Source: a virus
Taxonomy: Duplodnaviria > Caudoviricetes
Reading direction: 5' to 3' (one strand)
IMG/VR virus record: IMGVR_UViG_3300042542_006078
DNA: 64,000 nt
The notes below the pieces were generated by a model. It was not told where the DNA came from and searched no databases. It saw nothing but the letters and a program-made list of their open reading frames with translations. Below, piece by piece: positions 2,487 to 36,372 of the stretch. Position numbers and translations under genes: made by a program. The first letter of the stretch is position 1. Each line of letters starts with the position of its first letter.

Positions 2487-3290
2487 ATGAGAAAACTATT
2501 GGTTGCGACTATTATCATCTTTGGTTTTTTATGCATTTATTATTCAATTAAATACAAACATAAAAAAAATATTCAAAATGAAACAAGTTTACCTCATATG
2601 GAAAACAAGAAACCAATTAATAAAAACATTCCAGTTATAAATAAAATCAATGAAAAAAATGCAAAAATTAGATCGGTTTTGCTCAAGTCTATGCCAATCA
2701 AAATCAATAATGGCAATTTTACTTTTAGATTAACTGGTGATTTGGCTCACGAAAAAGAAAAAAACTTTCGTTTCATAGCAACAAGTAAATTAACTGGTAG
2801 GGAAATGGATTTGGGATCAAATAGGGAAATTTTTTGGTTTTGGTCTAAAAGAATCAATCCTCCAGCACTTTACTTTGCCAAGCATGAAGATCTGTCAAAA
2901 ACAAATCTTAAAACCCCATTGAATCCTTCTTGGATGATTGAATCATTGAATGTAGGACTTGTTAATCAAAAAAATATACATGGTTTTACAGAAACTGATA
3001 TTTATCTCCATCTTTTTGAAAAAAGGCTATCTTCTTCTGGGGAAGATTGCATATTCATGACAACAATCAATAAATTAACTGAAAATATTTGTTCTAGAAG
3101 ATTGACAGACAGTAATGGAAAAGTAATAGTAAGCACGGCATATAACGACCATATAACCACGATAGAATGGAAAGATGAAAATGTGACTATGGAATGGGAC
3201 ACGAAGGTCAGACAACTTAATGTTGATCTGCCCGAATCTATGTGGAAAATTCCCGATTATAAAAAGAAAATTAATATGGCGATTGAATGA
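2487..3290 (+). CDS. Hypothetical membrane-anchored/exported protein
   Basis: N-terminal hydrophobic helix; GSNREIFWFWSK..PPALYF motif. Confidence 0.7.
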   Translation: MRKLLVATIIIFGFLCIYYSIKYKHKKNIQNETSLPHMENKKPINKNIPVINKINEKNAKIRSVLLKSMPIKINNGNFTFRLTGDLAHEKEKNFRFIATSKLTGREMDLGSNREIFWFWSKRINPPALYFAKHEDLSKTNLKTPLNPSWMIESLNVGLVNQKNIHGFTETDIYLHLFEKRLSSSGEDCIFMTTINKLTENICSRRLTDSNGKVIVSTAYNDHITTIEWKDENVTMEWDTKVRQLNVDLPESMWKIPDYKKKINMAIE

Positions 3291-3524
3291 TTACTTGTTC
3301 AAAGATTTTCTAATTGCATCTCTTCTGAGAGCCTGAACTTTTCTTCTTTCCAAGTTGACACCTCCAGAATTGACAGGCGTTTGTGGAGGAACAGCCTGAT
3401 TTCTCACTTCGGTAGGAGTTCGGACTGATGCCACTCCTCTTGTTGTGGATCTTGCTGATGTGATAGGCCTAACCATTGGTGTTCTGCTATTGCTTCCAAC
3501 ACCTTTTTTGCAACCACAAGCCAT
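3291..3524 (-). CDS. Small basic protein with N-terminal CGC motif
   Basis: MACGCKK start, SD GGAGG upstream. Confidence 0.65.
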   Translation of the reverse strand: MACGCKKGVGSNSRTPMVRPITSARSTTRGVASVRTPTEVRNQAVPPQTPVNSGGVNLERRKVQALRRDAIRKSLNK

Positions 3525-3538
3525 AGTCCTCCATTTCC

Positions 3539-3748
3539 TTATAAGGGGTTTCTTGAGCGTGTTTTTGAGATTTTGTTCTTTCTTTCATGAACCGCTTTAA
3601 TTAAACTCGCCAACGCTTGCTTTTCTTCCATTAGATTGTCTGGTGGCATATTCATGGGTTGAGAGGGGCCAAAATTTGAGCCTCCTCCACGGCAACCACA
3701 ACCGCCACTTTGCTTGGGAACCGAATCTTGTTTTTGTTCGTTTTCCAT
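3539..3748 (-). CDS. Small protein with GGCGC motif
   Basis: TAAATA box (minus strand, 3753-3758) 4 nt upstream of ATG; tandem with 3291-3524. Confidence 0.6.
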   Translation of the reverse strand: MENEQKQDSVPKQSGGCGCRGGGSNFGPSQPMNMPPDNLMEEKQALASLIKAVHERKNKISKTRSRNPL

Positions 3749-3776
3749 ACTCTATTTATCCTTGGGGAACAGAAAA

Positions 3777-5300
3777 ATGCATTCCGAAGATGAAATACAA
3801 AATCTTGTCAAGACTGCTCTTGATCTAGCTTATAAAAAGTTTCAAGAAAAGAAATTTGAAATAGTTTGTGTCATTGCAGAGCAAATAATCAAGATTATGC
3901 CAAATGAGTACGCCGCCATGCAAATTCTTGGTCTTTCTTACAGCGCACTTCAAAGACACGACGAATCAATTAAAATCCTAAGTGAGTGCCTTGAAAAAAA
4001 CCCAGATAATCCCGAAACACTCAATGATTTAGCATTATGCGAGTCAAATCGTGGCCTTTACGAAAAAGCAATATTATTGCTCGAAAAAGCAATTCAAATA
4101 AATCCTGAAATGTCTGAACTGCATAGCAATTTAGGGCTTCAATATAGACATAAGGAGCAACACGAAAAAGCAATAGAGTGTTTTAATAAAGCCCTCCAAA
4201 TAAAGCCTATTCCAACCACATATGCCATGATGGGAGGCTGTTATGGTGAATTAAAACAACTAGAAAAAGCAAAAAAATACATAAAAAAAGCAATTGAAAT
4301 GAAACCTGATTTCGCTGCTGCCCATGTTGATCTTGCTTCTATTCTAAAGTTGCAAGGAAAATGGCCTGATGGATTCGAGGAATATGAATGGCGATATGAT
4401 GTCCACGATCAATTGCAAGTATGGAAAAAAATATATGACCCAAACAAAAGATGGCATGGAGAAGAAATTAATGGCAAAAGAATAATCATACACACTGAAC
4501 AAGGACATGGAGATGCAATTCACTTTGTTCGTTATTTGAAACCTCTTAAAGACAGAGGTGCCTATGTTATTCTGCACTGCAATGAGATTCTGCAAGGCAT
4601 ATTTTCTTCTTTTGCTGACGAAATATTCACGCAAGAACCAGACAAAATGAGTTCTTGGCAAGAAGGGAACGGAATTCCGAAACATGAATATCATTGCCCG
4701 ATGTTGAGTCTTCCTCATATTTTCAAATCAATTTACACTTATCCATCATACATTAAAGTTGACCGTAAATTTGATCTATCCAATTACAAAGATTTTTACA
4801 AAATTGGCATAGTTTGGGCTGGCAATCCTCAACACCCGAATGACAGACAAAGATCATGCAAACTTGAGTTATTCAGGCAAATTAGTGAAATGCCAAATGT
4901 TAAATTATTTAGTTTAATGAAAGATACAAGAACAAGAGCCTATGTCCATGAAAATAAACCTATCGACTTAACAGATGGCGCAGAAGACATGAAAGTTGTT
5001 GATCTAAGGGACCAAATTCATGATTTTGAAGATACAGCAGCAATTATCAATTCTCTTGATTTAGTGATTGGTGTCGATACAGCAGTAATGCATCTAGTAG
5101 GAGCCATGGGTAAGCCTTCCATTCTTTTACTGCCTTGGAATCCAGATTGGAGATGGGAACTGGAAGGGTCATTCACAATATGGTATGGCAACATGCATAT
5201 AATCAGGCAAAAAACAAAAGGTGATTGGGAACCTGTTTTTGATGAGGCCAAACAAATATTAGAAAATTATTTAATCCGTCATCTTGATGTTATTGATTAA
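3777..5300 (+). CDS. TPR-repeat protein with C-terminal GT-B (GT9-like) glycosyltransferase domain
   Basis: TPR helices, then EQGHGDAIHFVRY, KIGIVWAGNP, LDLVIGVDTAVMHLVGAMGKP, WRW; start moved to MHSEDE. Confidence 0.85.
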   Translation: MHSEDEIQNLVKTALDLAYKKFQEKKFEIVCVIAEQIIKIMPNEYAAMQILGLSYSALQRHDESIKILSECLEKNPDNPETLNDLALCESNRGLYEKAILLLEKAIQINPEMSELHSNLGLQYRHKEQHEKAIECFNKALQIKPIPTTYAMMGGCYGELKQLEKAKKYIKKAIEMKPDFAAAHVDLASILKLQGKWPDGFEEYEWRYDVHDQLQVWKKIYDPNKRWHGEEINGKRIIIHTEQGHGDAIHFVRYLKPLKDRGAYVILHCNEILQGIFSSFADEIFTQEPDKMSSWQEGNGIPKHEYHCPMLSLPHIFKSIYTYPSYIKVDRKFDLSNYKDFYKIGIVWAGNPQHPNDRQRSCKLELFRQISEMPNVKLFSLMKDTRTRAYVHENKPIDLTDGAEDMKVVDLRDQIHDFEDTAAIINSLDLVIGVDTAVMHLVGAMGKPSILLLPWNPDWRWELEGSFTIWYGNMHIIRQKTKGDWEPVFDEAKQILENYLIRHLDVID

Positions 5301-23116: not shown

Positions 23117-24103
23117 ATGAAACCAGATTCAGGATCACATCAACAACGACCTTACGATCAATGCAATGAAATTGCAAGTGTTCCCGATCCCATTCTAGAT
23201 CAACCGCCACCTTTTTGCGATCCCGATTCCAATCCAAATCTGAGAAGTGTAAATGATGAAAGCATGAACTGGCTTAAAGACCAGACTATGAAAAAAACAG
23301 GTTTCGGGGCAAATGCAAATAGCGATCCAATGCAAAAGGGTAAAATACTCAATGACCCGGATGCAAATAATCGTGCTGTACTTTATCGCTATTCAAGAGG
23401 TCTTCGTGGAAGCGACGAGGCCATGCTGGACCTTTTCAGGAATGTCATTGTGATTGACGAAGACGGCAAGGCTTGGCCAGTACCAATAATGCTTGGTCCT
23501 CCTGAAAAAGCTGTTGCTGCTATGATTCAGGAAAATGTAAGAAAAGATGAAACTCTTGTTGTTAACCGTATTAGACTTCCAATGATGGCAATGACACAAA
23601 CCAACATTGAATATGATATTAATAGATACACATATCATAAGGCTCTCAATTATTTCTTGGACGAAGAAGGAAAACCGTCAATAACACAGAGCGAAAGATA
23701 CAAAAAAGATACAATTTTTGGATTTGCGAGGGGTATTCCTGTCAATATGGGGTACACCGTAACTGCTTGGACACTGTATAGAGAAGACATGAACCAAATA
23801 GTAGAGCAAATAATGACAAAATTTAGCCAAGTCGCATATATAAGAGTGACTGGTGTACCATGGGAAGTGATTGTCAAATTAGACTCTGTTGCCAACAACC
23901 TGAACAATGAGCCGGGAGATCAGCAAATTAGAGTAATAAAATATGAATTTAATATGACGGCACAAACATATATACCACAACCAATCGAACGCAAGAAGGC
24001 TGTTCTGAGTGCTAAAGTTGATTTTGTTGACGGATTGACAGATGAAACTGTAACAGAAGTTTTGGCGAGAATTGAACAGTCAGTAAAGGAATTAGAATGC
24101 TAG
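23117..24103 (+). CDS. Tail terminator/sheath stabiliser, T4 gp15-like
   Basis: VPIMLGPPEK, RIRLPMMAM..IEYD..R, PVNMGYTVTAW..EDMNQIVEQI; directly upstream of the sheath. Confidence 0.8.
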   Translation: MKPDSGSHQQRPYDQCNEIASVPDPILDQPPPFCDPDSNPNLRSVNDESMNWLKDQTMKKTGFGANANSDPMQKGKILNDPDANNRAVLYRYSRGLRGSDEAMLDLFRNVIVIDEDGKAWPVPIMLGPPEKAVAAMIQENVRKDETLVVNRIRLPMMAMTQTNIEYDINRYTYHKALNYFLDEEGKPSITQSERYKKDTIFGFARGIPVNMGYTVTAWTLYREDMNQIVEQIMTKFSQVAYIRVTGVPWEVIVKLDSVANNLNNEPGDQQIRVIKYEFNMTAQTYIPQPIERKKAVLSAKVDFVDGLTDETVTEVLARIEQSVKELEC

Positions 24104-24322: not shown

Positions 24323-26683
24323 ATGGCAATTCTTAAAGGTTTTCCACCATCTAACACTATCAGCCCAAGCGTTAGAATTGCAGAAAAAGACCTGAGCTTC
24401 ATTGCGCCTGAGCAATCTACACATGTTGCTGGTTTGGTTGGTTTCGCCTCTAAGGGTCCAATCAACCTTCCCATTTCTGTTAGCACCTCTCGCCAATTGC
24501 ACACTATATTTGGCAATCCTCATCCTGATACCAGCGATCCATTTCTTCTTTATGCAGCAGACCAGTATCTTTTGGTTTCCAATACCCTTTATGTGGTTCG
24601 TGTTGCTGATACAGATCCGGTAAGCGATGAGCAAGCTCTCACCGCTAGTGTTGATGTGCCTGCTGCTGGTACAATTATCGAAATTATATCTGACACTGCT
24701 GGCCCATACACTTTTGATGAAGACAGCTTCTTCCGATGGAAACTCAACGATTCTCTCTCAGATAAGACTCTTGTTGTTTTGGCAGGAATTTACTCTGTGA
24801 CTGAATTGGTTTCCGAGTTGAACAATCAGATTGATACGCAATTAGACGGAATTGAATTCTACGAGAGCGACACCAATACAATCGCTGTTCAAACCGTTTG
24901 GGCCTATGGTCCAGATGCCAGCTTGGAATTTGTGTCAATTCAAAACGCCATCTACGGTGGCGCTGTTTCTGACGGCTTATCAATTCGTGACAACCCAACT
25001 GGTTTGGGCACTGGTATGACCCGTGCCTCTGTGACCGGATCAGCAGATCGTTATCCAGCAAACGGCTATACCGCTTCTGGACACTACGATCTATCAGGAT
25101 TCACAGATCCTGTTATCGAGATCGTGATTGACGGTACTGACAACATTCTGATTGATCAGGTTGTTCAGACAATCACTTTCGCTGCTGGCGCAAACTATTC
25201 AAATATCGGTGACATCGTGACTGATATCAACGATCAGAAAACTGAAAACGGCGGTACACTACCCGGTGGTTGGACAGCAGTTGCTTCAGGATTCTCTTTG
25301 AGATTTGTTACAAATGCTCACGGTGCCGATTCTCGACTCTACATTAAGCCAGCAAGCGTTTCTGCTTTCGGCCTCAGCACCACCACCAAGTCAGGAACAA
25401 CTCCTTCCGGCGAAAGTGGCGCAATTGATATTGAAACTTTGGGTTTGGTAACTGGCGGTGCAAATACAGGTGGCGATGTAACATTCACCATCAACGCTGA
25501 TTCTCCCGGTATCGATGGGAATGACACTCAGGTTGTAATTAAAAACGATATCTATGACAACAATTTCACAGTTGAGATTTATACCAATTCTGTGCAAGTT
25601 GAATCATGGGGAGGCCTTACCAAGGATGATGCAAGCCGCTTCTATGTTGAAACCTATCTTGCTCTAGTAAGCGATTATATCAGAGTATTGGACGACACTG
25701 CAATTGCAGCCGCTCCCGCAGATGGCACCTACACCTTGACAGGTGGATCAGATGGTATCCCCGCTGACCCAGATCAACAAGATGTTCTCCTGATGGGAAG
25801 CCCTGTTGGCTTCACAGGCATCTATACCTTGAGCGAACCAGAACAGGTTAACATCGACCTTATCGCTGTTCCCGGTCACTCAAGCACAGCAGTCGTTCAG
25901 GAACTTCTCGCTTTCTGCCGTGATTATCGTCAGGATTGCCTAGCAATTATCGACGCACCATTCGGCTTGACTGTGAAAGAAGTTGTATCGTGGCAGAACG
26001 GCGCACATCCTCTTAACAATGTTCGCTTTGATAGCGACTTTGGCGCACTTTACTGGCCATGGGTTAAGATTTATGACTCCTACAACAAGGTTGATGTTTG
26101 GTGTCCTCCTAGTGGCTCCATCATGGCTGTTATCGCTCGTAGCGATTTTCTTGGCGCTCCTTGGTTTGCCCCAGCCGGTTTGACCCGTGGTATTGTCCCC
26201 AATATTACCGATGTCTACAATCGTCCAACTTTGGAAGAGCGTGACCTTATGTACGGCAATCGCAACTGCGTGAACCCAATCGTTCAGTTCCCTGATGTGA
26301 ATGGTTTCGTGGTCTTCGGACAGAAGACTTTGCAGCGTATGCCGACTGCTCTGGACCGAGTAAATGTTCGTCGTCTCATGTTTTACATCGAGAAGGCAAT
26401 TCGCACCGCAAGCCGTGCTTTGCTGTTTGATCCAAATGATGAAGTTTTCCGCTCAAGGTTCGTGTCTTTGGCCGACAATATCTTGAAAAATGTTCAAGTT
26501 GGTCGTGGCCTAACTGCTTATATCATTAAGGCCGATGCCGAATTGAACACGCCGGATGTCGTTGACCGAAATGAATTCCGTGCAAGAATTGGTATTCAAC
26601 CAACCCGTGCCGCTGAATTTATGTTTATTGAGTTTTCAATCCATAGAACTGGCAGCTTCGCAGCAGGAGCCGAAACATTCTAA
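24323..26683 (+). CDS. Contractile tail sheath protein, T4 gp18-like
   Basis: SPSVRIAEKDLS, GFASKGP, WFAPAGLTRG, RVNVRRLM, IQPTRAAEFMFIEF. Confidence 0.95.
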   Translation: MAILKGFPPSNTISPSVRIAEKDLSFIAPEQSTHVAGLVGFASKGPINLPISVSTSRQLHTIFGNPHPDTSDPFLLYAADQYLLVSNTLYVVRVADTDPVSDEQALTASVDVPAAGTIIEIISDTAGPYTFDEDSFFRWKLNDSLSDKTLVVLAGIYSVTELVSELNNQIDTQLDGIEFYESDTNTIAVQTVWAYGPDASLEFVSIQNAIYGGAVSDGLSIRDNPTGLGTGMTRASVTGSADRYPANGYTASGHYDLSGFTDPVIEIVIDGTDNILIDQVVQTITFAAGANYSNIGDIVTDINDQKTENGGTLPGGWTAVASGFSLRFVTNAHGADSRLYIKPASVSAFGLSTTTKSGTTPSGESGAIDIETLGLVTGGANTGGDVTFTINADSPGIDGNDTQVVIKNDIYDNNFTVEIYTNSVQVESWGGLTKDDASRFYVETYLALVSDYIRVLDDTAIAAAPADGTYTLTGGSDGIPADPDQQDVLLMGSPVGFTGIYTLSEPEQVNIDLIAVPGHSSTAVVQELLAFCRDYRQDCLAIIDAPFGLTVKEVVSWQNGAHPLNNVRFDSDFGALYWPWVKIYDSYNKVDVWCPPSGSIMAVIARSDFLGAPWFAPAGLTRGIVPNITDVYNRPTLEERDLMYGNRNCVNPIVQFPDVNGFVVFGQKTLQRMPTALDRVNVRRLMFYIEKAIRTASRALLFDPNDEVFRSRFVSLADNILKNVQVGRGLTAYIIKADAELNTPDVVDRNEFRARIGIQPTRAAEFMFIEFSIHRTGSFAAGAETF

Positions 26684-26712: not shown

Positions 26713-27306
26713 ATGGCTATAATTGGTGGAAATATGGGCCTTGATAAAATCGGCGGGCCAGCGATTGTTTTCAAGCGCAAGTACAGATGGACATTTGATG
26801 TTCAATGGAACAACCAAATTGTTCCCAGTGCATTCGTGAAAGTTGCAAGCCGCCCCAATCTCACGATTGAGGAAACTGAAATTAACTATCTTCACGGCAA
26901 GATGTGGATTCCCGGCAAAGGTAGTTGGGAATCTATCACCGTGACCTACTATGATATCGGTGGTGCTGGCGCTGGTGGTATGCAGACTCTGTGGAACTGG
27001 CTTGCATCCGTTTACAACTTCACCGACCCTAATAGCCTTTCGCAGACATCACGAAGAGGCAATGACGGAACAGAAGGTGGTTGGGCTGCTGTTGGCACAT
27101 TGAGTATGTACGATGGTACTGGTGCGACTATGGAAACATGGGAATTAAAGAACATGTGGCCAACCGCTGTTAACTTTGGCGACCTCGACTATAGTAGCTC
27201 CGAAGAAGCAAGTCTTGAGTTGACTCTCAGATTTAGCGAAGCTAGATACACACCATCTTGCGGAATCAACAGACCAGTTCCAAGCAAGATCGGTTGCAAC
27301 GCCTAA
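26713..27306 (+). CDS. Tail tube protein 1, gp19-like
   Basis: Follows sheath; WESITVTYYD, WELKNMWPTAVNFGDLDYSSSE. Confidence 0.9.
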   Translation: MAIIGGNMGLDKIGGPAIVFKRKYRWTFDVQWNNQIVPSAFVKVASRPNLTIEETEINYLHGKMWIPGKGSWESITVTYYDIGGAGAGGMQTLWNWLASVYNFTDPNSLSQTSRRGNDGTEGGWAAVGTLSMYDGTGATMETWELKNMWPTAVNFGDLDYSSSEEASLELTLRFSEARYTPSCGINRPVPSKIGCNA

Positions 27307-27378: not shown

Positions 27379-27888
27379 ATGGCTCAACAAATGGGTTGGT
27401 TTGACGATTTTGGTTTATCGCAAGCTGATGGATGTTTCAAAAGAAAAAATAGATGGCTGCTTAAAATCGATAACATAAGCGCACAAGGAATTAATGCTTT
27501 GCCTCCTCAAAAGGCTTCTAGGCCATCTGTTTCCTTCAAAGAGCTTTCAATGGAGCATTTGAATGAGACTATTTATTATCCCGGCAAACCCGAGTGGAAG
27601 CCGATTACATTGACTCTTTATGACCTTAAAAAAAATAGCAACCCAGTTCTTGGTTGGATTAATCAAATTTATGACACGGGCACAGAGCAGTGGAATGCAT
27701 CAGCAGATGGTTTCAAAAAAGATGCTTATTTAGAATTGTATGATGGTACTGGAGAAACATTAGAGTCTTGGCTTCTTGTGGCCGCTTGGCCACAAGACAT
27801 CAATTTTGGTGATCTAGACATGGGAACAAGCGAGGTTGTAACTGTTGATGTCACATTAAGATATGACAGGGCCGTCTCATTGGTTTAA
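27379..27888 (+). CDS. Tail tube protein 2, gp19-like paralog
   Basis: FKRKNRW, WKPITLTLYD, WPQDINFGDLDMGTSE..LRYDRA. Confidence 0.85.
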   Translation: MAQQMGWFDDFGLSQADGCFKRKNRWLLKIDNISAQGINALPPQKASRPSVSFKELSMEHLNETIYYPGKPEWKPITLTLYDLKKNSNPVLGWINQIYDTGTEQWNASADGFKKDAYLELYDGTGETLESWLLVAAWPQDINFGDLDMGTSEVVTVDVTLRYDRAVSLV

Positions 27889-28206: not shown

Positions 28207-28752
28207 TCAAGGATCACTAACGATATTGTGTCTTTTATACAAATTTTTTGTTTTAATGGGTGGTAATTTTTGATCAAGTTGAATTTGTATGAAGTCAAGA
28301 TATTTTCTTTTTAGTTCATTGTAGTTTCTTGCAGTCCTGTAAAGTTGACGGAAATGATTTAGAATACATGTTGTCATATAATTAAAAGCTTTGCCTTTTT
28401 CTGGATCAAAACGATCAATCTTTTCAAAACAGATCATGACTCCTTCCTGCACGGCATCATCTTGATCTATAAGATTAAACTTGGCATATCTGACTATATT
28501 TTCAGATAATGTATAAAAAGCTATTGCTAGTTGGTCCTGTGATTCTTGAAATTCGGATGAAATAATCTTAAATTCTTTTTCGGTCAATAACCAAGATTCA
28601 GGTTTTTTATATTTATCTTTTTTACCAACTCTGTTTTGCGTTTCTATAATATCATCCATGAAAAGTTGATATTTAACTCTTTCCTTTTTTGTTTTTTGGA
28701 AATGGACGATAAGCGATTCAAATGTCTTGTTATTCAAATATTCTGTCGCCAT
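28207..28752 (-). CDS. Late-transcription sigma factor, T4 gp55-like
   Basis: YLNNK, DDAVQEGVMICFEKIDRFDPEKG, AFNYMTTCILNHF; region-2-only size. Confidence 0.8.
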   Translation of the reverse strand: MATEYLNNKTFESLIVHFQKTKKERVKYQLFMDDIIETQNRVGKKDKYKKPESWLLTEKEFKIISSEFQESQDQLAIAFYTLSENIVRYAKFNLIDQDDAVQEGVMICFEKIDRFDPEKGKAFNYMTTCILNHFRQLYRTARNYNELKRKYLDFIQIQLDQKLPPIKTKNLYKRHNIVSDP

Positions 28753-31337: not shown

Positions 31338-32441
31338 ATGGCAGATGAAAGTTTCCGCATGAGAAGGCCAAGCGATCAGAGTCAAGATACCGCACAATCA
31401 TCAGCGCCCCTAGATTCAGTCAATCAGATTCGTCAACAAGTTGCAGCCGAATCGGGAGACCCCATTGATGCTTCGACTGCTGGAATTCCAATCTCAGGGA
31501 ACATTCCTCCCGCTTTTGCTGCTGCGTTAGCAGCGGCAAAATCTACCACTCAGCCAAAGCGTGGCCTAAACAATATGAGTTCTGTCAGCGAAAATAATTC
31601 GTACACAACGCCGTCCAACACACTTTCTGGCTCAAATGCATCTGGCCACCTCAAGGAGCTTCTTGAAGGTCTTCGTGGCTCAACAACCGTATTTGAAGAG
31701 ATTGAATTGCCATCCAAAGGTAAGTTCTATGATGGCGAAAATGGACCAAGCAATGGCATTGTGTCTTTGAGGCCTATGACTGGCGAAGAAGAGCAGATTT
31801 TGGCTACTCCTCGATTTGTTAAGAAGGGTCAAGCCATCAACATGATTTTTCAAAAGTGCTTGAAGGAAAACTTCCGCACAGAAAATCTGCTCACTATCGA
31901 CAGAACATATTTGCTTATCTATCTTCGTGGCATCAGTTATGGGCCAAGTTACGATGTGGAAATCAAGTGCCCTGAATGTGAAACAAAGTTCTCAACAAGT
32001 ATTGACCTTAATAGTTTGTATGTGGAATACACTCCCGACGATTTCGGCCCAGAACTTCGTGATGTCCTTCCGACATCCAAGCTGCCATTCAGCTATCGAC
32101 TTTCAAGTGGAAAGGACGAGCAAGAAATTCAAGACCATCGTGACAGAAGAATCAAGGCTTTTGGCGACAATGGTGTAGATGACACTTTGATCTACAGAAC
32201 AGCGCAATTGCTAAATGATATTGATGGGATTGTAAATAAGAATGAATTGCAGATCCTTCTAAAGAATTTGCCAATTAATGATGTTTCTTACATCAGAAAC
32301 TTGATTAACGAACCTCCATTTGGAGTAAACACAGATGTAGATATTGTTTGTCCAAGCTGCTTGGCCGAATTCAACATCGATCTGCCACTTGAAGCAAATT
32401 TTTTCTTCCCTCGGCGAAAGAAGGCCAAGACCCAAGCATAG
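31338..32441 (+). CDS. Baseplate hub assembly/tail chaperone, T4 gp26-like
   Basis: IELPSKGKFY, LRPMTGEEEQIL, DRTYLLIYLRGISYG, CPEC/CPSC; SD AGGAG. Confidence 0.8.
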   Translation: MADESFRMRRPSDQSQDTAQSSAPLDSVNQIRQQVAAESGDPIDASTAGIPISGNIPPAFAAALAAAKSTTQPKRGLNNMSSVSENNSYTTPSNTLSGSNASGHLKELLEGLRGSTTVFEEIELPSKGKFYDGENGPSNGIVSLRPMTGEEEQILATPRFVKKGQAINMIFQKCLKENFRTENLLTIDRTYLLIYLRGISYGPSYDVEIKCPECETKFSTSIDLNSLYVEYTPDDFGPELRDVLPTSKLPFSYRLSSGKDEQEIQDHRDRRIKAFGDNGVDDTLIYRTAQLLNDIDGIVNKNELQILLKNLPINDVSYIRNLINEPPFGVNTDVDIVCPSCLAEFNIDLPLEANFFFPRRKKAKTQA

Positions 32442-32629
32442 GTCTTTGGGAACAATTAGCCGAGGAAATATTCTTCTTTCAGTATCACATGCAGATGGAC
32501 ATGACTATGTCTATGAGACTGCCTATCAATCTTAGAAAATGGCTGATTGAAAGATTCATACAGCAAAAAGAAAATGAAAAGCAGGCCGCAGACGCACAAC
32601 AAAGAAAAGGCAGACAGAGGTCTAAATGA
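32393..32629 (+). CDS. gp51/T-like domain in the -1 frame of the gp26-like gene (no own start; missed by ORF track)
   Basis: Open from the TGA at 32390-32392 to the TGA at 32627-32629; LWEQLAEEIFFFQYHMQM..LPINLRKWLIERF; its stop overlaps the next ATG. Confidence 0.7.
   Translation, partial: SKFFLPSAKEGQDPSIGLWEQLAEEIFFFQYHMQMDMTMSMRLPINLRKWLIERFIQQKENEKQAADAQQRKGRQRSK
32396..32465 (+). other. Predicted -1 programmed ribosomal frameshift signal
   Basis: In-frame slippery heptamers A_AAT_TTT (32396-32402) and T_TTT_TTC (32399-32405); stem CCTCGGC 32409-32415/GCCGAGG 32459-32465 enclosing AAGACC/GGTCTT. Confidence 0.7.
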
Positions 32630-33366
32630 GCAAGGAAAGATACCAAAGCCCTGTATGCGGAGACACAGTAAACCTGAGATTGTTTACATATAACTCCAAT
32701 AACAGGTCTAATGTTTCGAGTATTAGCAAAGTTAGCATCTTTACCATAGATGATTCTTTGAAAAGTGCTGAAAATCCTGAAGGATTAAGATTGGTCGAAG
32801 AAATTGACGGAAGTCAGATTCAATTAGCTGAAACTGGTGAATACATCCTGCCTTTGTATATCAACCCAGATTTATATGGTGTTGGTCAACACTATGACTT
32901 CTGGTCAGTAGTTTTTGAAAATGGAACATGTGCAAACGACGATATAAGAAACGCATTCAAGATTGCTCCTGATCTTTGGTTTACCAGTCCAAGCCCTATT
33001 CTTTACGACTTTAATTTTCAGTTCAGGCCAAATCGAGTTAGAAAAGGAAGCAAGAGGTATATCCTCATTAAAGTCACGCCTAATGTTCCACAAGGTGCCG
33101 ATCTAGTATCCTATTATGAAAATATTGCCATAGTCTCCGATATTAGGGTATCCATGGAAATCGCCTGCGGAGAATGTGTACCCGCAGAAACCGATCTAAG
33201 GCTCGTTGTAGATCGGCACCTTGTGGAATATAGGCAAGATAGCTACGCATATTGGTTTATAGATACAACTCAACTTGATGAGGGCATCTATAATGTTTGG
33301 TTTGAAACAACTCTTGGGGAAAGCACTTTCGTCTCTGAAAAATACGCTCTTCAGATTTACTCTTGA
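32626..33366 (+). CDS. Hypothetical, probable structural beta-sandwich protein
   Basis: ATGA-coupled to the hidden ORF; GEYIL..GQHYDFW, EGIYNVWF. Confidence 0.65.
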   Translation: MSKERYQSPVCGDTVNLRLFTYNSNNRSNVSSISKVSIFTIDDSLKSAENPEGLRLVEEIDGSQIQLAETGEYILPLYINPDLYGVGQHYDFWSVVFENGTCANDDIRNAFKIAPDLWFTSPSPILYDFNFQFRPNRVRKGSKRYILIKVTPNVPQGADLVSYYENIAIVSDIRVSMEIACGECVPAETDLRLVVDRHLVEYRQDSYAYWFIDTTQLDEGIYNVWFETTLGESTFVSEKYALQIYS

Positions 33367-33378
33367 TGTATTTTACTT

Positions 33379-33414
33379 AAAAGCACAGACAGGATATTAC
33401 CTGTCTGTGCTTTT
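33379..33414 (+). terminator. Intrinsic terminator
   Basis: AAAAGCACAGACAGG-ATATTA-CCTGTCTGTGCTTTT. Confidence 0.9.
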
Positions 33415-33485
33415 TCGTTTCAATAAACATTCAATCATATTGCTGTTTATTGTGTTGAGTCAAATACCATCATAGAGGTAATGTA

Positions 33486-35066
33486 ATGAGCGTTTCTCAG
33501 GCAAAAATTGACTTCTGGATTAAAAACAACTTCAATGTAATGTTCGTTGGTCGTCATGGTGTTGGTAAAACAGCTATGGTCACCGATGCCTTTGATCGCC
33601 ACAAATTGAGGTGGCGTTACTTTTCTGCATCAACGATGGACCCTTGGTGCGACTTCATCGGCGTTCCCAAAGAAAAAATTGACAATCCCTTGTGCGAACA
33701 AATGCAACTTGTTCGCCAAATTGCTGAAGTTAATTTCAGCACAGCGGTTTCATACATTCAGCAAAATTGGAAGTTGACAGATAAAAACGCTGCTGAAGAA
33801 CTTGTCAATCACGCCATGCGTGATAATGGCCCAGCATATCTTGAACTTGTAAGGCCGCAAGATTTTGCTAATGACCAAATCGAAGCCTTGTTCTTCGATG
33901 AATTCAATCGTAGCCCCAAGAAGATTCGCAACGCTGTTATGGAACTAATTCAATTCAAAAGCATTAATGGCAAGAAATTTTCCAACCTAAAAATCGTTTG
34001 GTGTGCCATCAATCCAGATAATGATGAAGCACTCAAGTATGATGTTGAAACACTTGACTCTGCACAAACTGACCGTTTTCAAGTTTCGGTAAACATTCCA
34101 TACAAACCAAACAAGGATTGGTTCCGTGCCACCTATGGCCAAAAGTTTGCTGATTCTGCAATCATGTGGTGGGAAAATCTGAACGAAGAGACTAAAAATG
34201 TTGTGAGCCCACGCAGGCTCCAATATGCATTGGACTGCTTTGTTGCCAAGGGTGACCCTAGGGATATTTTGCCAGCAAGCAGCAATGTGAATAAGTTGAT
34301 TGCAACTTTGAAAAATGGTCCAATCACGGATCAGGTTGAAGAGATCTTCAAGAACAAGGATAAGCAAGCTGCCAAAGATTTTATTCAGAATGAAAATAAT
34401 TTCTTTGATGCCATCAATCACATCCTTAAGTCTGTCACTATGACAAACTTCTTCGCCCCGACTATGGCAAAGGAGAAGATTACAAGCTTGATGTCGTCTG
34501 ATGAAAAGTTTTGTAAACATGTTATAGAAAATCTCGATGTTGTTCCAGTTTTTCATGGAATCTGCAAAGAAATTCTGAAAGCTAATCTTGATGCCGTGCT
34601 TGTCAAGAAGATCAGAAAAACTCTGACCGAAAATGAGAAGATCCAGAAGGCCTTTATCAAGGATTCAATTGAGGAGCCTAAAAGCTCAGTTGCCCCTCAT
34701 TTCAACAAAAACAAGCTGGACTGGGGCGTTGAGTTAACAAGTTTGGAATCAATGCCATTAAATAATTCGCACGACAAGATTATCATTTATGACAAGATAA
34801 TCAAAAACATACCTGAAAAATTAGATTTCGGTTCTGCCATGAGAACTTTGAAATTGATTTGCAAAGTTGTCGAGCCATTTCACAACAACTTGATTGAACT
34901 TGATAAGATGTTTGGGACAGTCAACCATTGTTTGGTTTCTATTCAGAAGGAAAAAAAAGTTTCCTTCCAAGAAATCTACAAAATGCAAGTAGATGAATTC
35001 AATATTTTGCTTAACAAGATTCGCCAACAAGAACTCGATTGGAAGATGGTGCGTGATGAGCAATAA
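33486..35066 (+). CDS. MoxR-like AAA+ ATPase
   Basis: Walker A GRHGVGKT, Walker B LFFDEFNR, CAINP, DSAQTDRF, SPRRL. Confidence 0.88.
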   Translation: MSVSQAKIDFWIKNNFNVMFVGRHGVGKTAMVTDAFDRHKLRWRYFSASTMDPWCDFIGVPKEKIDNPLCEQMQLVRQIAEVNFSTAVSYIQQNWKLTDKNAAEELVNHAMRDNGPAYLELVRPQDFANDQIEALFFDEFNRSPKKIRNAVMELIQFKSINGKKFSNLKIVWCAINPDNDEALKYDVETLDSAQTDRFQVSVNIPYKPNKDWFRATYGQKFADSAIMWWENLNEETKNVVSPRRLQYALDCFVAKGDPRDILPASSNVNKLIATLKNGPITDQVEEIFKNKDKQAAKDFIQNENNFFDAINHILKSVTMTNFFAPTMAKEKITSLMSSDEKFCKHVIENLDVVPVFHGICKEILKANLDAVLVKKIRKTLTENEKIQKAFIKDSIEEPKSSVAPHFNKNKLDWGVELTSLESMPLNNSHDKIIIYDKIIKNIPEKLDFGSAMRTLKLICKVVEPFHNNLIELDKMFGTVNHCLVSIQKEKKVSFQEIYKMQVDEFNILLNKIRQQELDWKMVRDEQ

Positions 35067-36372
35067 CAAGATTTCCAACGAAGAATGGCTTGAGATTTCC
35101 AATGAGTTGGAACCACACCATGCTGTTTTTTACAAAGTTTGGCAGATGGGAAGGCCTGTTTTTGATGAAAGCATTACCACAGCCTGTGTTCAATTTGACA
35201 AGGATGGTAATTTTATTGTCTTTCGTTTCAATCCTTCTTTTTGGAATTCTTTGGACCTATATAACAAACTGTTTGTGATTTGCCATGAGGCTCTTCACAT
35301 TGTTCTGAATCATGGAATCAGGGCAAAAGACTCAGGTTGTAATCAGCAAGCCACAAATGTGGCCATGGACATTGTTGTAAATCACACACTTGTCCGTGGT
35401 TTTGGGTTTTCAAGGAAGCTTATTGAAAACTCTGAGGACTATTGTTGGGTTGACACTGTATTCAAAAAACATGATCCCTTGCCATCCGATAATGAGAACT
35501 TTGAATATTATTACAACCTCTTTGAACAAGAGTTTGGCAACAACGGTATGGGTTCGGAAAAAGGCGAAAAGGGAAGTTCTCAGCATCCTTCAACTGTTGA
35601 CGATCACTCTGGTCTTGGAGACCAATCTTCTGATTGGGAAGAGGTTATTGATCAACTCAGCAATGAACTCTCTGATGAAGAAAAGAAAACACTCGAATCA
35701 ACGATTAAAAAACATTTCCAAAAAAAATCTGATCCAAATGAACAAAGCGATAAGATTGCAGGCTCTGGTACTGGAGGACAATGGGTTTTTATTTCTGGAG
35801 AAAGGCCTAAAAAGAAAAAGAAATGGGAGACTTGTATCAAGAAATGGGCTATGAAATCTGTTAAAAACGACGATATTGAAACAGAACAATGGGTCAAGCT
35901 TAATAGGCGCATGTCCTTGCTTGGAAGAAACCTACTAGTTCCTTCCGACATGGAAACAGAAGATAGGAATCAAGAACTAAAGAAGATTGATGTGTGGTTC
36001 TTTCTCGACACAAGTGGTAGCTGTTGGAATTTGAAAGATAGATTTTTTGCAGCAGCCGAATCGCTTCCAGAAGAGCAATTCGCAATAAGGCTTTTCTGTT
36101 TCGACACTACTGTTCAGGAAACCAATTTGAAAGATAGAAAAGTATATGGTGGTGGAGGAACATCATTCTTGATTATTGAGAATCATATCAAAAATGTGAT
36201 CAAGAAAGAAAGTTGTAAATACCCATCATCAGTTTGGATTATTACTGATGGTTTTGGAGACGGTGTTAAACCACAACATCCAGATAGATGGAATTGGTTC
36301 TTGACAGAAGACGGATATGATCGATTCATTCCAGCAGAATCATTGAAATACAAACTCAAGGATTATGAGTGA
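35056..36372 (+). CDS. DUF2201-like metallopeptidase plus VWA domain protein
   Basis: CHEALH, NVAMDIVVN, DTSGS MIDAS, GGGTSF, ITDG; start moved to MSNNK. Confidence 0.85.
   Translation: MSNNKISNEEWLEISNELEPHHAVFYKVWQMGRPVFDESITTACVQFDKDGNFIVFRFNPSFWNSLDLYNKLFVICHEALHIVLNHGIRAKDSGCNQQATNVAMDIVVNHTLVRGFGFSRKLIENSEDYCWVDTVFKKHDPLPSDNENFEYYYNLFEQEFGNNGMGSEKGEKGSSQHPSTVDDHSGLGDQSSDWEEVIDQLSNELSDEEKKTLESTIKKHFQKKSDPNEQSDKIAGSGTGGQWVFISGERPKKKKKWETCIKKWAMKSVKNDDIETEQWVKLNRRMSLLGRNLLVPSDMETEDRNQELKKIDVWFFLDTSGSCWNLKDRFFAAAESLPEEQFAIRLFCFDTTVQETNLKDRKVYGGGGTSFLIIENHIKNVIKKESCKYPSSVWIITDGFGDGVKPQHPDRWNWFLTEDGYDRFIPAESLKYKLKDYE

Follow-up and report, generated by a model that had tools for sequence, protein, structure and literature searches.

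To our knowledge, frameshifting in a tail-chaperone gene is nearly universal among long-tailed phages, the E/E+E' pair of P2 being a myophage example, but T4-type and giant myophages have seemed to stand apart; T4 gp26 and gp51 have for decades been called hub assembly chaperones of unknown mechanism. The frameshift of lambda and of tail-chaperone genes was reportedly described by Levin et al. in 1993 and by Xu, Hendrix and Duda in 2004. Here we analyzed the 3' end of a gp26-like baseplate-hub assembly chaperone gene (31302/31338..32441, plus strand) carried by a stretch of 64,000 nucleotides (nt) from an uncultured giant lake phage of the Caudoviricetes, IMG/VR record IMGVR_UViG_3300042542_006078, referred to below as the window. 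Our results make it highly probable that a programmed -1 ribosomal frameshift at U_UUU_UUC yields both a short and a long chaperone of the gp26/gp51 family from this one gene.

The lambda gpG/gpGT frameshift is conserved in tail assembly chaperone genes (summarised in PMC5009743). The window gene resembles G/GT in that one gene would give two products with a shared N-terminal body, the long form arising by a slip near the 3' end into a start-less overlapping open reading frame (ORF), and in that neither product is expected in the virion, which for the window proteins is a prediction. It differs in its slip site, U_UUU_UUC as opposed to G_GGA_AAG, and in its zinc-ribbon-bearing PF12322 core, which at ~230 residues is much larger than gpG. 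A -1 slip on a homopolymeric X_XXY_YYZ heptamer, giving two forms in a set ratio (tau and gamma), is also known from E. coli dnaX; the window gene shares with it the bacterial-type slip on such a heptamer and the two forms of one protein, but the shifted product is shorter in dnaX and would be longer here. What we describe is a known theme of tail-chaperone recoding in a family not known to use recoding: literature searches turned up no description of frameshifting in gp26 or baseplate-hub genes, and baseplate genes are not mentioned in a 2016 recoding review or in the PRFect paper.

Conservation of the slip site

The zero-frame protein (P0001) matches PF12322 (T4_baseplate) over residues 136-362 with an E value of 3.8e-20 and 73 bits, against a curated cut-off of 24.5, and covers profile positions 9-212 of 219, which places it in the family; it also matches phrog_150, 'baseplate hub', with an E value of 1.6e-23. 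The true start is likely ATG 31338 (MADESF..) rather than ATG 31302, because AGGAG lies 8 nt upstream of it and homologues, several of them 365-367 amino acids (aa) long, align only from residues 7-13; the short form would thus be 367 aa long, or 379 aa if ATG 31302 were used. The protein ends in ..EANFFFPRRKKAKTQA at a TAG stop (32439-32441). The short zero-frame tail, FFFPRRKK.KTQA, ends every one of 120 protein homologues among the matches listed, and the short form is therefore under selection as well.

Near its end the zero frame reads GAA GCA AAT TTT TTC TTC CCT CGG ... GCA TAG. As an earlier note on this DNA, made from the letters alone, had pointed out, two overlapping heptamers stand there in X_XXY_YYZ phase, A_AAT_TTT (32396..32402, plus strand) and T_TTT_TTC (32399..32405, plus strand). 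A scan of viral contigs gave 57 loci with gp26-like proteins mostly 50-78% identical to that of the window, a further relative being LR756511 ('uncultured phage', 595 kb); conservation counts rest on 42 distinct related loci. TTTTTTC was invariant in 42/42 of them, synonymous positions included, the two Phe codons being TTT and then TTC in every case (42/42 each); the codon before the T run was AAT (38), AGT (2) or GGT (2), with a final T in all. In the rest of the same genes TTT makes up 52% of the Phe codons and AAT 56% of the Asn codons. The wobble positions 32399, 32402, 32405 and 32408 were 98-100% conserved, compared with a mean of 55% at upstream wobbles; with four wobbles in a row nearly fixed against this mean, the site is more strongly conserved than coding alone would require. 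The same holds for the 12-nt block TTTTTTCTTCCC (32399..32410, plus strand), which comprises the slip site and the first dual-coded codons and is conserved along its whole length, with identities by zero-frame codon position of 1.0/0.99/0.99 versus 0.83/0.91/0.55 upstream.

Looked at across the relatives the two heptamers part ways: T_TTT_TTC is kept in all 42 loci, whereas A_AAT_TTT is present in most but lost in several (AAG_T in L019 and L029, C_AAT in L027 and L050, G_AAT in L015). Conservation singles out the second heptamer, T_TTT_TTC, as the slip site. The upstream heptamer is a possible second slip site in the window, and a slip on either one would lead to the identical protein. T_TTT_TTC was also found in the same phase in LR756511 and in the phages Atu_ph07 and PA5oct.

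The -1 frame and its start codons

The -1 frame contains an ORF of 78 codons (32393..32629, plus strand) that opens after TGA 32390-32392 and closes at TGA 32627-32629, which overlaps ATG 32626 of the next gene, just as had been read before; its product is SKFFLPSAKEGQDPSIGLWEQLAEEIFFFQYHMQMD..LPINLRKWLIERFIQQKE.. and the part translated after a slip would be 74 aa long (32405..32626, plus strand). This frame stayed free of stops over at least 200 nt in 42/42 loci, the +1 frame in 5/42. Between 32405 and 32441 (plus strand) the DNA is dual-coding, with the basic tail (F)FPRRKKAKTQA in the zero frame, an acidic linker, LPSAKEGQDPSI, in the -1 frame, and constraint in both. Past the gp26 stop and before the first ATG (32444-32488), identity by -1 codon position was 0.81/0.91/0.61, and the third-position variability typical of the -1 frame sets in directly after the gp26 stop, 45 nt upstream of that ATG. 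The -1 ORF is under coding-type purifying selection ahead of any start codon. Moreover, all of 38 extension sequences (38/38) matched phrog_20255, a family of unknown function.

The earlier note had further stated that no ATG, GTG or TTG precedes the conserved segment, and this holds for the window: the first such codon is ATG 32489, which lies beyond LW..LAEEIFFFQYH, and all residues that are invariant in the extension (E, E, FFF and Y) are N-terminal to it. The downstream ORF could nonetheless be a separate small gene, translated by termination-reinitiation, from a non-canonical start at the gp26 stop (ATA 32438, overlapping the TAG) or from ATG 32489, with the T run kept for the sake of Phe-Phe. 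Canonical starts do occur near the gp26 stop in a minority of relatives, where they count against a frameshift: TAATG in L001 (LR756511), ATGA in L050, GTG in L054, and TTG in several, standing two codons later in 8 loci. ATGA is likewise seen in Atu_ph07 and ATG just before the conserved W in phage HSE3, and gene callers and annotators list such small ORFs. Against a separate gene, 26/41 loci have no ATG, GTG or TTG before the invariant EE.FFF motif. The normal start in homologues that would speak for independent initiation was found in a minority only: 15/41 loci have a canonical one. Most of these are TTGs at a conserved Leu position and just 3 are ATGs, and the slip site is kept in all 15. 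In the window, six invariant residues precede ATG 32489, which lacks a Shine-Dalgarno sequence 5-10 nt upstream. A need for Phe-Phe, for its part, leaves unexplained both the order TTT-then-TTC in 42/42 loci and the T-ending codon before it, which is maintained across Asn, Ser and Gly. We therefore regard a separate gene as improbable, although separate initiation could contribute in those loci that have a canonical start near the gp26 stop.

A profile of the 38 extensions, searched against 1.84 billion representative proteins, gave 239 matches, nearly all of them ORFs of 32-120 residues whose N-termini are ragged, falling anywhere from profile position 1 to 37; such ragged small ORFs are what gene callers put out for a domain without a start. 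Current annotation pipelines would miss the long form: downstream of 'baseplate hub' genes they predict either ragged short ORFs of this kind or no gene. Four metagenomic proteins of 115-123 aa (P0140, P0144, P0154 and P0178) carry a standalone version of the extension domain behind an N-terminus of ~45 residues and a start codon of their own, as a separate gene would have it; they share a C-terminal ..ERTRNG motif.

A natural fusion in a duplicated locus

The same search recovered P0148, a 327-aa protein in which a PF12322 core and the extension are fused in frame. Its junction, ..LPFETGFF/LPSPDSEKG.. (the slash marking the point of fusion), is the junction predicted for a -1 slip; that nature joins the two parts exactly at FF/LP is a further point against a separate downstream gene. 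P0148 is encoded by L062 (Logan contig SRR17828886), in a duplicated locus (2883-4984) with two PF12322 genes in tandem, whose products share 65% identity with each other and ~50% with the window protein. The short gene, of 371 residues, ends in GFFFPIAKRETEEK followed by its stop and has the DNA GGG TTC TTT TTC, while the fused gene reads GGG TTT TTC TTG CCA, so that the T6 run is broken in both. The short copy keeps a long disordered N-terminus which the fused long copy does not have. The L062 lineage has exchanged the recoding signal for one short and one long gene. The presence of both genes, together with the decay of T6, points to a requirement for both forms and to retention of the run only where ribosomes must slip.

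P0148 also bears on whether there is any recoding at all, given that the frame arrangement might come from an assembly error or a decaying gene, with the -1 ORF unexpressed. Sequencing indels are common in homopolymer runs, and a single fused protein such as P0148 could be one of these errors; yet its run was changed by substitutions and not only by an indel, and the gene adjoins a second, short paralogue. The same arrangement of frames recurs in isolate genomes and in 57 viral contigs, which come from many samples, and the -1 ORF shows the codon-position conservation of a coding sequence. The chance that the arrangement is an artefact or a relic is practically negligible.

The AlphaFold2 model of P0148 (mean predicted local distance difference test, pLDDT, of 87) has helices at residues 263-287, 291-294 and 299-326, preceded by the acidic linker (252-261), which is predicted to be disordered (pLDDT < 50). 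With this fused relative, fold matches to baseplate hub proteins in BFVD reached E values down to 2.6e-16. A search of the Swiss-Prot part of the AlphaFold DB, a database from which viral proteins are largely absent, gave nothing significant, and none of the PDB folds matched at E <= 0.001, the HK97 chaperone 2ob9 reaching only E = 1.9. Tail-chaperone families gave no match in Pfam or PHROGs either. A kinship with known families of tail assembly chaperones thus found no backing in sequence or fold homology across Pfam, PHROGs and PDB.

Short and long products

The inference that this phage makes a gp26 pair in the style of G/GT is backed by the invariant heptamer, the start-less conserved -1 frame and the natural fusion in L062. 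According to the mechanism we propose, most ribosomes would read through to TAG 32439 and make the short form, ending in the basic tail FFFPRRKKAKTQA. A fraction would slip by -1 with tRNA-Phe on UUU and UUC of U_UUU_UUC (32399-32405), the P-site UUU and A-site UUC re-pairing to UUU UUU; the overlapping A_AAU_UUU is possibly an alternative slip point. The slipped ribosomes would continue in the -1 frame to TGA 32627, giving a long form of 430 aa if translation starts at ATG 31338, or of 442 aa if it starts at ATG 31302, with the predicted junction ..LPLEANFF/LPSAKEGQDPSIGLWEQLAEEIFFF.. (..LPLEANFF/LPSAKEG..). The long form would have the same core followed by the acidic flexible linker and a helical C-terminal domain of ~60 residues. 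The Glu-C peptide ANFFLPSAKE would be diagnostic of the long form, and ANFFFPRRKKAKTQA of the short one. If lambda gpG/gpGT and T4 gp26/gp51 are a guide, the two forms would be needed in a set ratio; we infer from the same analogy that the shared core acts on the tape-measure/hub complex and that the extension gives the long form an extra contact.

RNA structure around the slip site

The stem described in the earlier note (CCTCGGC/GCCGAGG enclosing AAGACC/GGTCTT) is present in the window as a two-tier stem-loop (32409..32465, plus strand; helices 32409-32415/32459-32465 and 32427-32432/32441-32446) with a minimum free energy of -25.3 kcal/mol and a z score of -2.2 versus shuffles, but it is not conserved and hence not a conserved stimulator. 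Across 38 relatives 52% of cells pair and each helix is broken in most sequences, the stem being common only to near-identical contigs; folding of the 66 nt downstream of the heptamer in the 42 loci gave a mean z of -0.8, with z < -2 in 9/42. The stem-loop is a lineage-specific element and no family feature, although it may tune the efficiency of slipping locally. No conserved Shine-Dalgarno-like element was seen upstream in the relatives. This differs from dnaX, which has an upstream Shine-Dalgarno-like stimulator and a downstream stem-loop. The window gene would then add a class of recoding to those known, U_UUU_UUC without obvious stimulator.

RNAalifold suggested a pairing of the slip site, UUUCUUC, with GAAGAAA ~60 nt (~80 alignment columns) downstream; it was rejected as a stimulator, both sides being fixed by coding and free of covariation. 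In the window, UUUCUUC at 32402-32408 can pair with GAGGAAA at 32462-32468 (~55 nt downstream), most relatives having GAAGAAA there; covariation of these two segments cannot be judged because coding fixes both sides, FF(F/L) and EE(I/V).

Several observations, besides the minority of canonical starts, weigh against a programmed frameshift. A downstream stimulatory structure conserved among the relatives was looked for and none was found; the stem of the window starts 6 nt past A_AAT_TTT and only 3 nt past T_TTT_TTC, the usual distance of a stimulatory structure being 5-9 nt. The loci are related, so that the counts for the conserved site overstate independence. The RNA contigs skip the slip site: metatranscriptome contigs from three lake or freshwater runs and one other cover 32036-32341 and 32423-32673, leaving 32342-32422 uncovered, and assembled contigs would hide rare indels in the T run.

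Distant myophages and the tail-chaperone slot

The order sheath, tube, PF12322 gene and tape measure (or a large gene at that position) was found in five distant myophages: Bacillus phages HSE3 and SP-15, Listeria phage LIS04, Flavobacterium phage immuto and Microcystis phage Mel-JY01. The PF12322 gene and its extension there occupy the position between tube and tape measure that is characteristic of lambda G/GT; the window gene lies 3.4 kb past the tube genes with no tape measure after it. From the PF12322 gene to the tape measure the five have a tiny annotated ORF or nothing annotated. In all of them a broad hidden Markov model (HMM) of the extension matched, with 23-43 bits, an ORF, taken from stop to stop, that overlaps the PF12322 gene at its 3' end; weaker matches were obtained in Atu_ph07 and PA5oct.

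In the latter two phages the extension occupies the -1 frame, with T_TTT_TTC in phase as in the window (CAT TTT TTC in Atu_ph07, AGT TTT TTC in PA5oct), whereas in the five with the tube-to-tape-measure arrangement it is in the +1 frame, at the sites GAA TTT TTT CAC, GAG TTT TTT AGT, AAC TTT TTT TGG, AGC TTT CTT and TTC TTT CGT. Every -1 lineage has T_TTT_TTC in phase, and the five +1 lineages have UUU_UUU_N or UUU_C, HSE3 only TTC TTT C. The +1 ORFs look like the +1 counterpart of the same recoding. They lie at 2117-2422 in LIS04 (L067), 3150-3473 in SP-15 (L060), 2132-2434 in immuto (L066), 2207-2494 in Mel-JY01 (L068) and 3201-3425 in HSE3 (L059), and are unannotated in LIS04, only truncated small ORFs being annotated in the others.

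These sites also help to distinguish a ribosomal slip from transcriptional slippage, in which the polymerase would add one U in the T6 run and the U7 transcripts would give the long form. For slippage of the polymerase speak the homopolymer run, which is the only strictly conserved element, and the fact that no conserved RNA stimulator was found; giant phages, moreover, often carry RNA polymerase genes of their own, and these enzymes may be prone to slip. However, bacterial-type polymerases usually need 8-9 or more residues for efficient slippage, for which six are short, and the closing C of the heptamer is invariant. Transcription is indifferent to phase, yet the run always stands as X_XXY_YYZ in -1 lineages and as UUU_UUU_N or UUU_C in +1 lineages, and HSE3 shifts at TTC TTT C, with three T's only. 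The match of phase and direction, together with the T3-only site of HSE3, favours a slip of tRNA-Phe on the ribosome over polymerase slippage, which we consider quite unlikely.

Comparison with T4 gp26 and gp51

A review of the T4 tail lists gp26 and gp51 as chaperones of hub assembly and gp51 as missing from particles (PMC3004832 Table 2). T4 gene 26 encodes 208 aa ending in ..KEFFELL and gene 51 encodes 249 aa, and both are full-profile matches of PF12322; in gp51 the match spans residues 1-201 and is followed by a tail of 48 residues. In phrog_150, gp51 extends to position 280 of 282, and gp26 and the zero-frame product of the window only to ~235. From this coverage of PF12322 and phrog_150 it follows that gp51 consists of a gp26-type core and a 48-residue tail. 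The tail is listed as PF28602 in precomputed annotations, and a homologue search limited to it returned only 4 proteins.

The likeness between the T4 proteins and the window products lies in the common core family, in gp26 ending, like the short form, 3 residues past a Phe-Phe motif, and in the tail of gp51, which has a long helix, a short helix, a Pro and a final helix in the same order as the extension. The AlphaFold2 model of a T4-type gp51 (mean pLDDT 92) has these helices at 208-221, 226-231 and 234-249; following the last zinc-ribbon strands, it shows the same order of elements as the model of P0148, with a Pro before the last helix in both and the similar motifs (D/E)E(I/Q)(F/L)xF and P..ER. 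T4 differs in having two diverged, divergently transcribed genes without recoding, and the sequence similarity of its gp51 tail to the extension is marginal, the extension matching phrog_20255 and not phrog_634.

The -1 ORF had been called gp51-like. It can be likened, by position and helix pattern, to the ~48-residue tail of gp51, but not to gp51 as a whole, the first 200 residues of which are a paralogue of gp26. HMM comparison gave a marginal result with broad profiles (hhalign P = 0.014, probability 3%) and nothing with narrow ones; an HMM of the gp51 tail ranked the -1 ORF of Atu_ph07 first, at a marginal E = 0.017, and the extension had no match to phrog_634 or to the end of phrog_150. 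Whole-protein profiles of the window and T4 families themselves align poorly (probability 17%), so the profile method has little power for comparing the extension with the gp51 tail. It is plausible that the two are equivalent in architecture, as position and helix pattern suggest, with marginal support from sequence.

A link between the T4 hub chaperones and the tail-chaperone frameshift, as the earlier note had proposed, is supported by gp51 being a gp26 core plus a tail and by the presence of PF12322 in the tube-to-tape-measure slot of five phages. PF12322 genes number one each in a relative rated 100% complete (532 kb), in LR756511 (595 kb), in Atu_ph07 and in SP-15, and two in T4; a second one was not found within the 64-kb window by tblastn. 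In the GenBank record of Acinetobacter phage Berthold, the gp51 homologue already bears the name 'tape measure protein assembly chaperone'. In a wider scenario, to which we give about an even chance, the PF12322 gp26/gp51 family would be the long-missing G/GT-equivalent chaperone of T4-like, SP-15-like and giant myophages; recoding at a C-terminal Phe-Phe would be ancestral, by -1 on U_UUU_UUC or by +1 on UUU_UUU_N or UUU_C, and T4 and the L062 lineage would have replaced it independently by duplication into a short and a long gene. Hard-wired duplicates argue that both forms are needed. A conserved frameshift in PF12322 would give gp26 and gp51 a testable role, in which a short and a long chaperone act as a pair on the tape measure.

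Neighbouring genes

The gp26-like gene belongs to a tail module, ~3.4 kb downstream of the tube genes. Upstream of it lie a sheath stabiliser (23117-24103), the sheath (24323-26683), two adjacent tail-tube paralogues (26713-27306 and 27379-27888; phrog_4542, E values of 5e-25 and 3e-31) and, on the minus strand, a gp55-like late sigma factor (28207-28752). The genes that follow encode a protein of 246 aa, then an AAA ATPase and then a DUF2201_N protein. The first of these (32626..33366, plus strand), whose ATG 32626 overlaps the -1 stop (ATGA), matched no family in Pfam or PHROGs; it is syntenic in relatives, a homologous gene of 244-254 aa coming next in L001 and L062. In L062 (5002-8483) the 244-aa gene is followed, as in the window, by the AAA ATPase and DUF2201_N genes.

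This string after the chaperone, consisting of the 244-254 aa protein, a 526-aa AAA/MoxR-like ATPase and a putative metallopeptidase of 459 aa (DUF2201_N), is conserved (32626-36372 in the window, 4187-4951 in L001 and 5002-8483 in L062), and its genes may be further tail or hub assembly factors. In the window the ATPase gene (33486-35066) and the DUF2201_N gene (34993-36372) overlap by 74 nt.

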